A DNA stretch of 64,000 nt. Source: Candidatus Spongiisociaceae bacterium. GTDB taxonomy: Bacteria > Actinomycetota > Acidimicrobiia > Spongiisociales > Spongiisociaceae. The position numbers and the translations under genes were made by a program. Positions 54,008 through 58,999 of this stretch are shown here, one piece after another (position 1 is the first letter of the stretch; each line of letters opens with the position of its first letter). The DNA lies in assembly GCA_965262915.1 (NCBI GenBank), contig OZ253564.1, positions 1,952,001 through 2,016,000 of the forward strand, written 5' to 3'. A model generated the notes under the pieces. The model made no database searches. It had not been told where the DNA came from and worked only from the letters and a program-made list of their open reading frames with translations.

Positions 54008-55390
54008 TCAACCGGTATCGGTAGCGAGCATCGAGATGAGTTCGGGGAAGCTCGAAGCGCTCCCGAGGCCGGCGACGGCTGTGGCAATCGCGTCCTGGCG
54101 TTGCACCGAGTACACAGGCCCGGTGATGTCGTCGAACTTTGTCCTGAGTTCCCCGGGTGAGAGCGGATTCGTGGGGTCGCCCTTCGGGTCGTCGATCTCT
54201 GCCCTCAGCGTGCGGCCGTCGGTCGTGATCACCTCGGCCCAACTTCTCCATTGATGAGGGTAGGTGAGATCGAGGTCCGTGTCTATGACACGATCTGTGG
54301 CATCCATCAAGCGGTGCATCTCGGGGTCATCGAAGCGCGACTCGTCGTATTGCGCCAGCGATGCCCGCCCTTCGGTGAGCGCCACCGCGACCCCATACGG
54401 CATCGAGAACTGGGCATCGACGACGGTAGACGGACGGCGTTTTGCCTCGATCGGCTGCCAGACGATGTCCTCAGCGACGCTCAGCAGCCCGATCTTGATC
54501 CCGGCAACATCATCGCTGCTGAGGTCGTAGTTGGAACGGAGTTCCAAGAGAGCATCGATCGGGCCCTGCTTGTAGCGGCAACAGGTGTGTGCCTTGATAC
54601 TGGTGTTCTGCACCTCAAGCGGCCGATCGCCCCAGCCGGCGAGGATCTCCTTGGGGTTCGGATCGTCTGAGTATCCGGCCAGGAATCCACGCTCTCCACC
54701 GATTCCGTCGTCGGTTCCCTTGAACCCGTGTCGAGCCATCAACGCCGCTTCCACACCGTTGCGGGCAGCCTGAGCGGGATGGAGACGCTTGGTCCACGCG
54801 CCGTCGAGAAGGAACTGCATGCTGCCGGCTGCCATCGTTGCCGCTATGCCGAGAGCAGAAACCGTCTCATCGACACCCAGTCCGAGTATCGAGGCGGCCG
54901 TAGCGGCCGCTCCGAAATGGCCGGTAGTACCGGTGGGGTGGAAGTGGCGCCGGTAGTGAGCGAGTGGTTTGGCGGCGCGGCCGATCCGGCACATCACCTC
55001 GTAGCCGACGATGACGCCGAGCAGAAAGCGCTGTGCATCCGCATCAGAGAGCTGCGCTGCCGCGATAGCCGCCGGGAACACGGCAACGCCGGGATGACTC
55101 GAGGCAGCGTTGTGCACGTCGTCATATTCGATGGAGTGAGCGGCGACCGCGTTGGCCATGGCCGCGTGGAGAGGATTCGCGGTGAGGCTCGTTCCGATGA
55201 TCGGGGCGCCGCCCGGGGTCGACGACACCGCGAAGGATTGCATTGCCCGTCCCGAGTCGGTAGTTGCACCGTTGGCCGCGACGCCGAGATGGTCGAGAAG
55301 GAGTTCTCGGGTCGCCTCCAGATCGCGGTCTGTGAGTTCCGAATAGGTCAACTCCCAGACCCGCTCGACAAGGTCCCTCGTCAGCGACAT
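54008..55390 (-). CDS. MmgE/PrpD family protein
   Basis: HSIEYDDVH, HPG, GYEV, FHPTG, AQFSMPY and PKGDP. Confidence 0.92.
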   Translation of the reverse strand: MSLTRDLVERVWELTYSELTDRDLEATRELLLDHLGVAANGATTDSGRAMQSFAVSSTPGGAPIIGTSLTANPLHAAMANAVAAHSIEYDDVHNAASSHPGVAVFPAAIAAAQLSDADAQRFLLGVIVGYEVMCRIGRAAKPLAHYRRHFHPTGTTGHFGAAATAASILGLGVDETVSALGIAATMAAGSMQFLLDGAWTKRLHPAQAARNGVEAALMARHGFKGTDDGIGGERGFLAGYSDDPNPKEILAGWGDRPLEVQNTSIKAHTCCRYKQGPIDALLELRSNYDLSSDDVAGIKIGLLSVAEDIVWQPIEAKRRPSTVVDAQFSMPYGVAVALTEGRASLAQYDESRFDDPEMHRLMDATDRVIDTDLDLTYPHQWRSWAEVITTDGRTLRAEIDDPKGDPTNPLSPGELRTKFDDITGPVYSVQRQDAIATAVAGLGSASSFPELISMLATDTG

Positions 55391-55830
55391 TCAACCCTCC
55401 GATTGTTACCCGGTGAAAAAGTCTGACAAAGGATACCGCCACCCTTAAGAATCCGAAAGAGGAGATCGGTGATGTTGTCTCGCTGATCGGCGAACGGTGC
55501 GTAGTACTGATCGGTGGCAAGCTCTGGCTGCCCGATCGTTGCTGGGAGACAAGTCCCTCGAACCTTCGCTAGTTCGGAGATGTCGCGTAGTGCATTCGGT
55601 ATAGCTTTGGTTGTTGCGGAGCGCCCCGGTGGCGGGTCTCACGGGTCCGAATCCCACTCCCACCACGGGCCGGTCAGCGGTATCGATCAGCACGTTCGTC
55701 ACACTAACACCTCGCAGGTGCAGTTGCTCGGACATGAGATCAGACACTGAGGCCTCCCTGGATCGGCGTCTTGGCTATTCGCCGATTCCAGCTGGGCCTC
55801 ACCCCCTTTCCAGGGATGCTCCTACGGTTG

Positions 55831-57060
55831 TCAAGTCGGTGACGGGGCGGGTTGGTGGGTTAGGAGCCAGTTGTGGTATTGGCTGGCGAGTTGGTGGTTG
55901 TGGTCTCGGCCGTGTTCGAGTTCTGAGATGCGGGCGGTGTGGGTTCGGAGGGCTTGGGCGGCTTGGGTGATGGTGATGCCGCCTTGTTGGCGCTGGTTGC
56001 GTAGGCGGGCGCAGTTCGGGGTTGGTGGCGGGTTGGTGAGTAGTCGGTAGATCTGTGGGGCGATGTGGCGTTTGAGGCAGCGGATGATCTCTTTTCGGTT
56101 CTTGCCTTCTCCCTGGCGTCTGGTCACATATTCTTTGGTGGCAGCGTCGGTACGTATCCGGGTGGTAGCGCATCGGCCACAGCGCTGTTGGCTTGGCGGT
56201 TGCCGCCCCGGTTGAGACGATGCCGTATGGTCTGTCCTGATGATGCCTGGACAGGGCTGGTGCCGCACAGCGCCGCGAAGGACGCTTCTGTTTTCATTCG
56301 CCCGGGGTTGTCGCCGGCGGCGACCAGCAGAGCGGCGGCTGTGTCAGGGCCCACACCGGTGGCGGCCAACAACGCCGGGTTCGCCCGGGCGCAGAGACGG
56401 CGGATGTCTCTCTCGAGTTGGGTGATCTCAGCGTTGAGGGTTTGGTATCGGCGGGCCAGGTGGCGTAGAGCCTTCTTCGCGTACGCGGCTGTGGTCTGTG
56501 CTTGGCCGGGACGCCAGCGGGCACAAACCGCTACTCGTGCTCTGAGGTTGAGGCCCTTGAGCTGGTGTTTTACCGGCTCTGGGGCACCAACGATCACAGA
56601 ATGGATCTGGTTAGCCGCCTGGGTGCGGGCCTTGGTCGCCCAGCGGCGGGCCACCAACAGCATCCGCAGGGCACTCAACCGGCCCATCACCAGATTTGGG
56701 AACCGCCGCCGCCTCCCCGCTAGCAGCCGCCCGGGCTGGTGCCTCGGCGTCGACGCTGTCAGACTTGCCGCCCTTCTGGCGGCGTAGTTGCCGGTTGGGG
56801 CGGTTCACCTCCACCACCTCGATGTCGGCTGCGGTCAGATAGCGAGCCAGGCCGGCGCCGTAGCTGCCTGTCCCTTCCATCCCGACCCGAACCAGCCGAC
56901 CCTGCGACCCGAACCAGGCGACCATACGCCGATACCCGGATGCCTCCGCGGAGAACGACTCCCACCCCAACAGCCGACCAGCGCTATCCACCAACGCCCC
57001 CACATGCGTATCCCGATGGGTGTCAACCCCACCGAAAACAACAACCCCATCTTCTGACAC
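55831..57060 (-). pseudogene. IS110 recombinase with C-terminal HTH, two frameshifts
   Basis: GVDTH, MEGTGSYG, KSDSVDA (DEDD), CGTSPVQASSG, RCLKR; split over ORFs 56611-57060, 56124-56690 and 55831-56268. Confidence 0.88.
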
Positions 57061-57099
57061 GACCCACCTCCCCGTGGACTACCGTCTTTCCAAATGGGG

Positions 57100-57330
57100 T
57101 TCCGGCCAAAAACGGCAGACAATACACTCACGGTGCTGGCAAGCTAAAGCTCCTACAAGGTCATGTCCGCTTCGAGCCAAAACCCTCCCCCCGGACCGGG
57201 GACAGGCCGACAGATCCTTGGAAAGGCGCTCCACACGCCAGATTTCACCGGGGTCAGACCCGCCCCCGGTCCAACCGGGCCACCCATGCGCAGTGGCCGC
57301 CAAAGAACCGGACACCACCCATGGGACACC
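57100..57330 (-). ncRNA. Putative bridge RNA of IS110 element 2 (boundaries approximate)
   Basis: Four guide segments at 57241-57249, 57214-57226, 57149-57156 and 57125-57130 match target and donor sequences in the expected orientations. Confidence 0.8.
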
Positions 57331-57623
57331 ACCCATTATGAGTGATTTCACCCCACCAACCCCACACTTCTGCGCAGCCTCAGAAAGCGCAGGCTTTGGA
57401 TAGCTGTCTGAGCTTGGGTGAATGGCCGGAGGGCTGGAGTCGGTTATGACTTCTGGTGTCAACAGCGACCAGGTAGGGCCGGATAGCTACAGGTATCGTG
57501 AAAGCCAACCGCTCACTCCCAAGGTTCTTCCGGCTGGAGCCCCGCGGTCGCACTCCACGGATTCTGTGGGATACAGGGTGGGACGAACACTCCGGAAATG
57601 ACTCTCTATCGGGACCTTTAACC

Positions 57624-58999
57624 GGCTCATCGGAATTCAGTGGGGAGTGACGGTCGCCGGCAGGTCCCAGTTCGGTGTTCCGGCGTGGAGGAGTGCCCGT
57701 ATTCGGTAGTTGGCGAAGTTGGGTAACCCGAACGCGCTCCGTTTGATGCGTTTGATGAGGTTGTTGAGGGCTTCGGTGGGTCTGTTGGTGACTCGGGACT
57801 GGTGCCAGTTGGTGATCTGAGTGGACCATCGGGCGATGACACGGCCGAGGCGGTTGATCTCGGGGGGCATGATTGGTCTCCGAGGTCGGTGGCGAGCTGG
57901 TTGGTGTATCCGACGGCGAGGGTCAGGAAGTCGACAGTGTAGATGCCTCGGACGGTTTCGGTGACGTGCCACCCCAGGCGGACTTCCCGTGGGGGTCGCC
58001 GGTTTCGAGGAGTCCGAGGAGTCGTGTTCGGCCGCGGTCGCTGATGCGTTCATGCGCTTTGGTGAGTCGGCGTGCTCCGTAGAGGGGATCGCGTTTGCGT
58101 CCTCGATAGCCCAGGGTTTCGTTCTGGACGCGTCGTCTGACCTCGTCGAGGCGATGGTTAGCGAGGCGCACGACGTGGAACGGGTCGGCGACCTGGCGGG
58201 CGGGGGGCAGCACCCGGTCGTAGGCAACGTGATAGGCGCCTGACATGTCCAACACTGCCCAGCGGACACCCGCAAGCCACTCGGTAGGCTGGGCCCGAAA
58301 CCAGGCGGCGTCACTGTCAGTTGTTCTACCACCGACTATGTCGGACAACTGTCGGCCGCCGACATCGACAACAGGCGTGCACCACTGCTTGGTATGCCAC
58401 CGTCCCCGTCGCCGGAACAACGTCTCGTCCACCCCCACAGCCTCCACCGCTCCGAACCGATCCTTGTCCGCTTCGAGCAGTGCTTCCCCCCAGCGTGCGG
58501 CCTCCTTGTTGACCGTATGCCACCCACAGCCCAACTCCGCGGCAACATCGTGGGTCGTCCGTCCCAGCCGACCGACCCCGATGGTCACCCACCTCCCGGC
58601 CCGAGAGGTCAACAACCCCCGTTCCGAGCAATCTGAGGGTCTTGTTCCACAAACGACCCAACACCACACGACTCATCCGGACATACCCAGCGGCGTTTCC
58701 GCCAACCGAGCCGTACCGGTCGGCCGAACGCCGGGAGGTCCACCAACACCACCGTCCGCTCCCCCTTGGACCACACCGGCCCGCCACAACCTTCACACAC
58801 CGGCCGGGCCCTACGGCTACGGATCACCACCCCCAGCGGCCCCTCTCCCGTGTAGTCGATACCTACCACTCAACCTTGCCCAGGCCACCAGCCGCTCGCA
58901 CATGTGCGCAGGGATCAGCTTCCACAGGGGGTCCTCCTGCCTCGGATGCGATTGCTGAACTCCGACTACGGAGGACCCCTCCTCACTTCCGGTAGATCA
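57624..58999 (-). mobile_element. ISL3-family element with frameshifted transposase (57637-58925)
   Basis: CEGC zinc finger, VGVDE, DMSGAY, DPFHVV, NRPTEALNNLIKRIKRSAFG; GGCTC-type terminal IR at 57624-57646. Confidence 0.85.

Follow-up and report, generated by a model that had tools for sequence, protein, structure and literature searches.

Upstream of its broken recombinase gene, an insertion sequence in the window (the whole 64,000-nucleotide stretch of contig OZ253564.1 analysed here) carries short copies of its own flanks and ends. This raises the questions of whether these copies are the guides of a bridge RNA, how many target letters they specify and whether such a copy can still be mobile. 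Our analysis makes it very probable that the locus is a defective IS110-group insertion sequence on the minus strand, seated inside the left end of an ISL3-family element, with a bridge RNA for a 14-nt target. The coordinates of its features are collected in Table 1.

Element boundaries and recombinase gene

An IS110-type element had been proposed here from the letters alone, and this is borne out by domain matches, ends and sister copies. The traits found are those of the IS110 group: a DEDD and a Tnp domain, a long left and a short right non-coding end (283 and 13 nt), a two-loop RNA in the left end, guides that covary with the flanks, and a short core. A guide RNA 3' of the gene and a long right end, both traits of the IS1111 group, were not found; here the guides precede the gene, and the right end measures 13 nt. 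Terminal inverted repeats are absent, and the ends ACTCAT... and ...TAGGAGC, read directly, are not inverted copies of each other.

An ISL3-family IS carries the insertion site in its left end, 67 nt before the transposase start, and the ISL3 leader has an inverted repeat ~10 nt beyond the right target. Eleven ISL3 left ends hold the site, eight of them uninterrupted at GGTGAA ATC CTTGG and three with the window element's right end there. Empty sites had been suggested as a check on the boundaries, and the eight unoccupied ones, from the same genome, place them exactly at ATC, which is present at both junctions. A core of ATC or TC, as previously read, is compatible with the data, and the unoccupied sites of four classes narrow the letter always common to target and donor to C alone; no other target duplication was seen. 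A Pfam scan of the ORF at 55445-55747 gave no match.

The recombinase gene runs through three frames: one C has been added within 56664-56676, and the stretch 56167-56186 shows a net change of −1. Its pieces match PF01548 (DEDD; 2.9e-16, ORF piece 57060-56611) and PF02371 (Transposase_20; 2.3e-14, piece 56690-56124), and the last piece holds a C-terminal HTH-like stretch. The whole-protein score is that of an intact sister of 410 aa (L005:1759-2988), the window copy being frameshifted, and reaches 209.2 bits with NF033542, 'IS110 family RNA-guided transposase' (cut-off 140). This sister also matches IS621 (8wt6, 1.8e-10, in two short stretches) and ISCro4 (9t56), and the D, E, D and D positions are visible in its alignment with IS621. 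In the same alignment its SSGQ stands opposite ESGSS of IS621, and the window copy retains ...VQASSGQ...; by our own reading of this alignment, which carries no position numbers, the SSGQ stretch probably holds the catalytic serine (S241). In a plasmid collection only the coding region was matched, at ~65-70% identity ('IS110 family transposase' or 'transposase'), and no match reached the left end.

Table 1. Positions in the window of the element, its RNA and its surroundings
Feature	Position	Strand	Remarks
Element body	55818..57343	-	1526 bp, ACTCAT...TAGGAGC; ends common to ~24 sister copies; limits set by unoccupied sites
Left target GGTGAAATC	57344..57352	-	identical to left target guide; last letters ATC = 57346-57344, repeated at right junction
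Right target ATCCCTGGAAAGG	55805..55817	-	positions 10-14 guided; positions 15-19 (AAAGG) would fit the scaffold by coincidence
IS110-family recombinase pseudogene	55831..57060	-	GTG start at 57060, GGAGG 7 nt upstream; three frames
5' stem-loop of non-coding RNA	57283..57325	-	centroid fold and alignment; in the window class, c01 and G3, missing from the shorter left ends of other classes
Target-binding loop	57193..57272	-	outer stem around internal loop
Left target guide GGUGAAAUC	57241..57249	-	same sense as left flank; would pair with the flank's bottom strand
Small hairpin GGCG...CGCC	57225..57240	-	between target guides; last two C's taken as guide in the sequence-only reading
UUU linker	57222..57224	-	conserved in sisters regardless of target; taken as guide in the sequence-only reading
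Right target guide	57214..57221	-	variable CCAAG (target positions 14-10) and invariant GAU (positions 9-7)
Donor-binding loop with outer stem	57104..57178	-	outer stem columns 113-126 / 170-182, compensatory changes
Left donor guide GUAGGAGC	57149..57156	-	same sense as the element's right end
Right donor guide	57122..57130	-	UGAGUG antisense to left-end start, and three flanking letters
-10-like hexamer CATAAT	57335..57340	-	left end; faces the -35 only in circular form
-35-like hexamer TTGACA	55829..55834	-	right end, 11 nt from end
ISL3 left-end tip, upstream of insertion	57353..57380	-	aligns with left ends of other ISL3 copies
ISL3 left-end continuation past insertion	55690..55804	-	aligns with other copies for ~90-130 nt, then ISL3 lost

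Guides in the left end and in sister elements

The four string matches on which the guides had been read were all confirmed: 57241-57249 equals 57344-57352 (GATTTCACC on the plus strand), 57214-57226 agrees with the reverse complement of 55805-55817 at 12 of 13 letters, 57149-57156 equals 55818-55825, and 57125-57130 equals the reverse complement of 57339-57344. Between the first two there is a GGCG/CGCC stem at 57239-57236 / 57228-57225. The single deviating letter in the right flank is a C for T at 55813, and against the usual unoccupied site (ATCCTTGG...) and the flank of the second copy the right match is 13/13. In the window the 9-mer occurs twice (0.42 expected; at least two in 3/100 shuffles), as does the 13-mer when at most one mismatch is allowed (0.06 expected; at least two in 1/100 shuffles). 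The window by itself thus excludes a chance origin of the matches only moderately, and the 8-mer and 6-mer matches would have little meaning taken singly. True proof of the guides is comparative, in that the same four positions of the sisters hold other letters, which fit the sisters' own flanks and ends.

The sister elements of this genome and its relatives gave 41 insertions with both flanks, falling into 16 guide classes. A left guide matches its cognate flank at 8.50 of 9 letters, compared with 4.10 of 9 for the 240 non-cognate pairs, and the corresponding values for the right guide are 4.56 and 1.38 of 5. In total 209 of 224 cognate letters match, which was reached by 0 of 20,000 permutations (maximum 141). 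Covariation among homologues had been named as a check, and over these classes the guides do covary with the flanks. In the left donor guide only the first letter varies, and it does so in step with the right end, being G in the window and c01 classes and A elsewhere; the left target guide ends in C in 14 of the 16 classes. Spacing differs between classes, the guide block finishing at the shared C in some and one letter short of it in others. The pattern scans were run with certain letters of the scaffold preset (GAT and one or two letters at the start of the linker), which by itself accounts for part of the scaffold constancy in their output; in the 11 sisters retrieved by BLAST the constancy is independent of these scans. 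Taken together, the comparison strongly supports reading the left end as a putative bridge RNA.

Folding, also suggested earlier, points the same way. In the consensus fold of 10 sisters the target loop is closed by an outer stem of 13 pairs, of which two show compensatory changes; in the donor loop, too, the outer stem is conserved with changes of this kind. The target guides are unpaired, and the guides sit in internal loops rather than in paired stems. The proposed order of target loop and then donor loop, each with a same-sense 5' guide and an antisense 3' guide, is therefore borne out by consensus fold and covariation. The stem arms of the target loop are paired in the single-sequence fold as well (P(unpaired) 0.01-0.06). 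In that fold GAAA of the left guide is base-paired with the UUU linker and some of the right guide (UUU has a P(unpaired) of 0.10), and therefore the free RNA of the window copy may be partly closed. The GAU of the right target guide is complementary to the ATC just after the element's right end, and in sisters the right donor guide is flanked by three letters that vary with target positions 8 and 7. In the window class the letters beside the right donor guide do not fit that class's own target.

That all evidence consists of DNA sequence would suit another explanation, in which the flank and end repeats are sites at the DNA level (sub-terminal repeats bound by protein, or captured copies of the target) and not RNA guides. 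We regard this as extremely improbable, since a same-sense and an antisense segment in each loop, enclosed by compensated stems, is what a folded RNA predicts and DNA repeats do not. Moreover, the recombinase is homologous to those of IS621 and ISCro4, for both of which an RNA mechanism has been solved, and a promoter across the joined ends would read into the guide region.

A search of Rfam families over 55000-58500 (E-value threshold 1) gave no match, and among sequencing runs on record as RNA none contains the stretch. Two short contigs (154 and 156 nt, zero differing letters) span 57113-57280, that is both loops, and come from runs whose kind was guessed, so that they cannot show transcription. 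Other short contigs from the same runs of guessed kind (four runs, one study) cover parts of the gene and likewise cannot show transcription.

With the bridge RNA as the preferred reading, one high-G+C genome and its relatives provide, as a natural resource, 16 differently programmed guide sets that share a conserved scaffold and have unoccupied sites to match. In these sets the programmable letters (9 + 5) can be told from scaffold letters without experiment, as can the position of the shared letter and the tracking of the target by the neighbours of the right donor guide.

Length of the right target guide

A long right target guide, giving a target of 17-19 bp, had been deduced from the window element. 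The sisters do not bear this out, as the five extra letters are the UUU linker and two C's of the hairpin. The linker starts with TT in all 11 sister left ends found by similarity (TTT in 10, TTA in one), and across the 16 guide classes it is TTT in 13, TTA in two and TTG in one. Extra guide letters that vary with the target were not found among the relatives in the 16 classes compared. The extra letters being mostly fixed scaffold, the system looks from these sequences like an ordinary 14-letter one, with a programmable target of 9 + 5 nt as in IS621 and IS622. Long complementarity in a single element is a tempting observation that need not reflect a guide.

A reading that we regard as unlikely has the UUU linker of the window class, perhaps together with the two C's of the stem, pairing with positions 15-17 (or 15-19), which would give 17-19 bp recognition and a bias to AAA(GG) sites. 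CC plus linker fits positions 15-19 at 5/5 at the window site and at the second copy, and at 4/5 at the usual unoccupied site, where it is hence less striking. By a rough base-composition estimate the chance of a 5/5 fit is ~6e-4 per class, which is low for one class, and ~1% over 16 classes; the fit is 5/5 in the window class only, whereas the same letters, constant in sisters with unrelated targets, fit at 0-2/5 in all 15 other classes. Durrant 2024 reports that IS621 prefers flanks able to pair with the three letters immediately 5' of the natural right guide of 4 nt, that longer pairing raises specificity and that some orthologues have longer right guides. In the present family, however, the five variable letters already extend to position 14, the IS621 protein wedges at positions 1 and 14, and a 4-bp hairpin would have to open if the two C's were to pair. 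At an AATGG site there is a remnant of the same class, and in another genome ATATG (3/5) is the site of a right end whose guided letters are the same.

There are only two AAAGG sites and both are occupied, compared with 1/9 of the other sites, which could also be taken in favour of a long guide. We rejected this occupancy argument, as the two sites are not independent but have a near-identical right flank of ~89 nt in common, and conversion or recombination fits.

Promoter geometry, mobility and known systems

With right and left end joined, 24 of 24 copies show a -35-like hexamer and CATA.T separated by a spacer of 17 nt, and no promoter-like site was found in the linear form. This geometry would be in line with a circular intermediate and RNA-dependent recombination. 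Our proposal builds on the complementarity, the 16-class covariation, the conserved fold, the boundaries and the promoter geometry, and borrows from IS621 where cleavage occurs, in what order strands are exchanged and that a circle forms. The 283-nt left end would encode a bridge RNA made up of 5' stem-loop, target-binding loop and donor-binding loop. In the target loop, GGUGAAAUC matches target positions 1-9 and would pair with the bottom strand, and positions 14-8 of the top strand would be paired by CCAAG with GA. In the donor loop, GUAGGAGC matches the right end, and UGAGUG is the antisense of the left end. If it behaves like IS621, the element would excise as a circle, in which the junction of right and left end would form a TTGACA-17-CATAAT promoter for both the bridge RNA and the recombinase gene. 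Strand exchange after the shared C, by a tetramer of the recombinase with the RNA, would then leave ATC on both sides, and the five further matching letters would be fixed scaffold that fits this target by coincidence.

The locus had been read as a programmable recombinase system; the recombinase gene is broken, and the window copy is therefore not a working system on its own; with its two frameshifts it could move only with a sister recombinase in trans. It is somewhat probable that this copy is a dead relic with readable guides, and that its near-identical second copy arose by recombination or conversion and not by new insertion. Both full copies carry the same two frameshifts, an insertion of 2.8 kb additionally divides the second, the surrounding ISL3 is truncated, and the letters flanking the right donor guide misfit the class target. 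The identity gradient between the flanks of the copies (~99% over 89 nt on the right, many differences on the left) suggests conversion. On the other hand, the loops are intact and identical to those of a copy in another genus, whose contig ends before the right flank, and 20 of 24 sisters have ORFs of at least 409 aa and the same ends, which makes supply in trans conceivable. A trans-acting recombinase is reported for ISPpu10 in a preprint (10.64898/2026.03.19.712850). That the two full copies are independent insertions made after the frameshifts, and thus prove mobilisation in trans, was considered and rejected; a near-identical right flank of ~89 nt with differing left flanks fits conversion or recombination. 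Elsewhere in genome contigs the window guide set was found in one further record, on the same contig as L037, and in metagenome contigs neither the loop pattern nor the right-junction pattern was found.

A wider scenario, which we consider quite unlikely, is a guild of co-resident bridge-RNA elements on different ISL3 sites (left tip, leader 67 nt before the start codon, stop codon and right inverted repeat). The window class would be its non-autonomous member, with working bridge RNA and ends, riding on sister recombinases and using the UUU linker as a fixed auxiliary extension (17 bp).

The mechanism proposed for the defective bridge-RNA element is the one described for IS621 in 2024, and nothing in it is new in kind. 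A narrow literature search for IS110 elements with bridge RNA that target ISL3 ends found nothing relevant, and we do not claim that the case is unpublished; the clade may already be among the thousands of bridge RNAs that the 2024 papers predict and list in their supplementary tables. The bridge RNA and recombinase of IS621 from E. coli (PMC11208160, Durrant et al. 2024; PMC11208158, Hiraizumi et al. 2024; PDB 8wt6) are like those of the window element in having a recombinase with DEDD and Tnp domains, a left-end non-coding RNA that runs from 5' stem-loop over target loop to donor loop, a 9-nt same-sense left target guide, an antisense right guide, a 14-nt target and a promoter rebuilt on circle formation. 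The window clade further resembles it in a near-invariant last core letter (here C, 14/16 classes) and in letters beside the right guides that track the other partner in a handshake-like manner. In contrast to IS621, to which the protein similarity is distant, the shared letter is C (donor TC) and not CT, the natural right guide spans positions 8-14 and not 4 nt, and the match of the left donor guide stops three letters short of the shared C, whereas it reaches position 8 in IS621. The letter at position 7 is the same in target and donor here, a situation reported to hinder exchange for IS621/IS622, yet one that is also found in the most prolific class. IS621 targets REP sequences, whereas the target here is an ISL3 end.

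ISCro4 / IS622 (Perry et al. 2025, preprint, 10.1101/2025.05.14.653916; PDB 9t56) has 14-nt recognition, handshake guides and domain order in common with the window element and differs from it in the same points as IS621. ISPpu10 of Pseudomonas putida (preprint, 10.64898/2026.03.19.712850) is likewise an IS110 element with all insertions in copies of one repeated sequence and a hairpin beside the target, to which the inverted repeat ~10 nt away here may be comparable, but the repeat is intergenic there and another IS here. IS4321/IS5075 of the IS1111 group, cited in PMC11208160, target transposon inverted repeats and are thus, like the window element, specialised on the termini of a different mobile element; IS1111-group elements have the guide RNA in the right end as well as sub-terminal inverted repeats, whereas the window element has its guides in the left end and showed no repeats of this type. 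For engineering, the window clade offers recombinases that already have a full-length right guide and, compared with IS621, ~65 extra C-terminal residues with a helix-turn-helix match.

Covariation of guides and flanks

The sequence-only reading had proposed that four bridge-RNA guides can be read directly from this IS110-group element, and all four string matches were found exactly where it had placed them (see table). For the two longer matches, counts within the window by itself are uncommon without being decisive: there are two occurrences of the 9-mer where 0.42 would be expected, and two of the 13-mer, allowing one mismatch, where 0.06 would be.

Features of the window copy and its flanks
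Feature	Position	Strand	Remark
Left flank GGTGAAATC	57352-57344	minus	element sense strand
Element start ACTCAT...	57343	minus	
Left target guide, copy of GGTGAAATC	57249-57241	minus	same letters as left flank
Small hairpin GGCG...CGCC	57240-57225	minus	
CCTTTCCAAGGAT	57226-57214	minus	reverse complement of right flank, 12/13
Left donor guide GTAGGAGC	57156-57149	minus	last eight letters of element
Right donor guide TGAGTG	57130-57125	minus	antisense to first letters of element
Recombinase gene, three overlapping ORF pieces	57060-56611, 56690-56124, 56268-55831	minus	PF01548 (DEDD_Tnp_IS110) and PF02371 (Transposase_20)

Alignment of the left ends of sisters (related IS110 elements in the same genome and its relatives) gave a fixed scaffold, which runs from GGTCTGAC plus three letters through nine variable positions to a TGGC...GCC hairpin, followed by TTT (TTA in one sister), a further five variable positions, GAT and finally CTGTCG. 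A scan with this scaffold, in which the 9 + 5 letters were left free and the first one or two letters of the TTT linker were fixed, gave hits in 7/29 family genomes and, at the level of the order, in 14/401 sampled genomes. The variable letters were then compared with the element's own flanks for insertions with both ends, one-ended rows being excluded (8/30 in one set, 8/14 in another). The data set comprised 41 insertions in 16 guide classes. The results showed clear covariation among homologues, a check that the sequence-only reading had proposed: cognate pairs, one per class, matched at 8.50 of 9 left and 4.56 of 5 right positions, compared to 4.10 and 1.38 in non-cognate pairs (n=240). 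The summed cognate match was 209/224, and none of 20,000 permutations came as high (maximum 141). The donor side is nearly invariant; a single letter varies in the left donor guide (G or A), and in 20/20 combinations of guide and end it agrees with the right end. The guide anatomy had been read correctly. One sister copy, L014 (C1:3663632-3665083), misfits its own guides (5/9 and 1/5), and its site resembles another class's target (AAAGAAC...). Possible origins of this copy are recombination between two classes or an insertion that was off-target or half-matched.

Unoccupied sites and the shared C

Matching stretches were found at 54 places in the same genome, and in all 24 copies with both ends recognisable the element starts (C)ACTCATA and finishes TAGGAGC, followed by ATC. 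The window flanks are the left end of an ISL3-family IS, intact copies of which encode a 398-aa protein (PF01610 at 1.3e-57), and the insertion site precedes the ISL3 start codon by 67 nt, as counted on the sequence. The ISL3 leader motif gave 13 matches, 11 of them with the site present. Since eight of these sites read through uninterrupted (...GGTGAA ATC CTTGG...) and the other three carry the right end of the window class at exactly that ATC, the boundaries are where they had first been drawn.

Unoccupied sites are known for four classes. Besides the eight of the window class, they comprise CGCGGAAAC followed by GTGGG for a class inserted ~22 nt further upstream within this ISL3 end (one of eight read-through left ends, genome 690567, the rest differing by at least one letter), ACTGAAATC C GAWGAGCC for the class that uses the right inverted repeat of ISL3 (16 of 17 sites) and ACTGAAATT C CCCAC for the c01 sister class (two sites); one additional site fits the c25 class. 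On their sequence, all of these sites fit one joined-end sequence, in which the right end ...TAGGAGCAT and the left end ACTCAT... would meet at one shared C. The AT preceding this C is part of the element, and three letters look duplicated in the window class because its target itself reads ATC. In some classes, the window class among them, the block that the left guide matches runs up to the shared C, and in others it stops one letter earlier, a difference of 14 vs. 15 letters from first to last guided letter on a fixed scaffold.

The three letters past the right donor guide complement target position 8 in 14/20 combinations and position 7 in 13/20, but donor position 8 in only 2/20. This pattern is as expected for the handshake and incoming-core pairing that Durrant 2024 (PMC11208160) and Hiraizumi 2024 (PMC11208158) describe for IS621. 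In the window class these letters misfit the element's own target.

At least four sister classes target separate points of ISL3, namely the left tip, the leader (window class), the stop codon, where the left flank encodes ...AARGILVT and then stop, and the right inverted repeat, with 16 insertions having both flanks and 17 such right ends unoccupied. Sister L037 (G025:C69), which comes from a different genus within the family, has an identical target loop and is inserted in an ISL3 left end of the same kind; its left flank reads ...GGGTGGGTTGAAATC and its contig stops short of the right junction. A second ISL3-family transposase gene lies at 57637-58669 (minus); it is probably frameshifted, since its two overlapping ORF pieces both match PF01610. 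Its right end, near 57630-57660, contains …CACTGAATTC C GATGAGCC, an unoccupied variant of the site that the most prolific sister class uses. At 55745-55800 and in other ISL3 left ends, an inverted repeat, GAGGCC.CGCTGGA ... TCCAGGGAGGCCTC, is found ~10 nt past the right target, just before the start codon. For ISPpu10, a hairpin adjoining the target was reported as important (preprint, 10.64898/2026.03.19.712850).

The right target guide and the predicted RNA fold

The right target guide had been read as unusually long, and this did not hold. The 13 letters are two hairpin-closing C's, a UUU linker, five variable letters (CCAAG) and GAU, and only the five variable letters depend on the target. 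The linker, its first one or two letters being fixed by the scan, is TTT in 13 classes, TTA in two and TTG in one; in 11 sisters found by similarity it is TTT in ten and TTA in one. Linker and stem C's are conserved across classes with differing targets, and CC plus linker fits target positions 15-19 at 5/5 in the window class but at 0-2/5 in all 15 others. GAU complements the ATC past the right end of every sister and fits the target only where that itself reads ATC. Mapped onto IS621, the left guide covers positions 1-9, GA the core (9-8), U handshake position 7 and the five variable letters positions 10-14, and by this mapping the right guide of the clade is naturally the "extended" one, at 7 nt, and its target measures 14 nt. 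According to the two 2024 papers (PMC11208160, PMC11208158), the IS621 protein wedges into the duplex, and positions 15-19 fall past the wedge point. It is conceivable, though we consider it unlikely, that UUU contributes some pairing where a site contains AAA, as a property of the target rather than a longer programmable guide; IS621 has a comparable preference, for flanks complementary to the letters immediately 5' of its short guide (PMC11208160). The same guided letters occur at AATGG (a remnant, genome 3668928) and ATATG (sister L076). Because such sites exist, extension past position 14 is not required.

A consensus fold of ten sisters showed a 13-pair outer stem round the target loop (two pairs with compensatory changes), an invariant 3-pair hairpin and a second outer stem enclosing the donor guides. 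Here both target guides are unpaired, in line with guides lying in loops. When the window copy is folded alone, its outer stem is firm but a pairing is predicted between GAAA of its left guide and UUUC after the hairpin. This predicted pairing is a peculiarity of the window guide set, not of the family.

A defective member and its relation to IS621

In the window copy, alignment with an intact sister reveals two frameshifts, a +1 C within 56664-56676 and, within 56167-56186, a net -1 change. The 410-aa protein of intact sister L005 (L005:1759-2988) matches NF033542 ("IS110 family RNA-guided transposase", 209 bits) and the solved IS621 and ISCro4 proteins. HTH_31/HTH_3 matches lie at its residues 352-386, outside the IS621-aligned part, and the last window ORF piece has a weak helix-turn-helix match; the clade recombinases carry ~65 additional C-terminal residues, in which these matches fall (L005:1759-2988; window 55831-56268). 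ORFs of at least 409 aa are present in 20/24 sister copies, counted by length with frame integrity checked for part of them. The non-coding ends of the window copy measure 283 nt (left) and 13 nt (right).

When right and left ends are joined, TTGACA (55834-55829) stands 17 nt upstream of CATAAT (57340-57335), and a -35-like hexamer, 17-nt spacer and CATA.T across the joined ends are found in 24/24 copies; no promoter-like site was found in the linear stretch 55700-57500. The geometry seen on joining of the ends parallels that of IS621, for which PMC11208160 describes a promoter rebuilt upon excision.

Every feature that defines the IS110 group and is open to a sequence test is present. Compared to IS621, the clade differs in that the letter common to target and donor is C, the right guide is naturally full-length, the left donor guide stops three letters before the shared C, target and donor are identical at position 7, the recombinase has a C-terminal helix-turn-helix, and the window class and several sister classes target ISL3 ends. 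The comparison drew on Durrant 2024, Hiraizumi 2024, Perry 2025 (preprint, 10.1101/2025.05.14.653916), the ISPpu10 preprint and a half-match preprint; the clade may already be among the listings of earlier published work.

The window element is a defective member of the IS110 group. Both frameshifts are common to the second copy of its class (genome 2806461-2806828 and 2809606-2810864), which is split just past its start codon by a 2.8-kb insertion (C1:2806828-2809606). At the far end of that insertion is an unoccupied site of another sister class, CCGGGAAAC C CGGGG. The right flanks of the two copies are near-identical over ~89 nt, and the left flanks differ. A single +1 C, located in a run of C's, disrupts the recombinase gene in the window copy, the second copy (2809606-2810864) and the 90%-identical c01 class (L003) alike; one c01-class copy (genome 4465628-4466855) has a compensating deletion near it.
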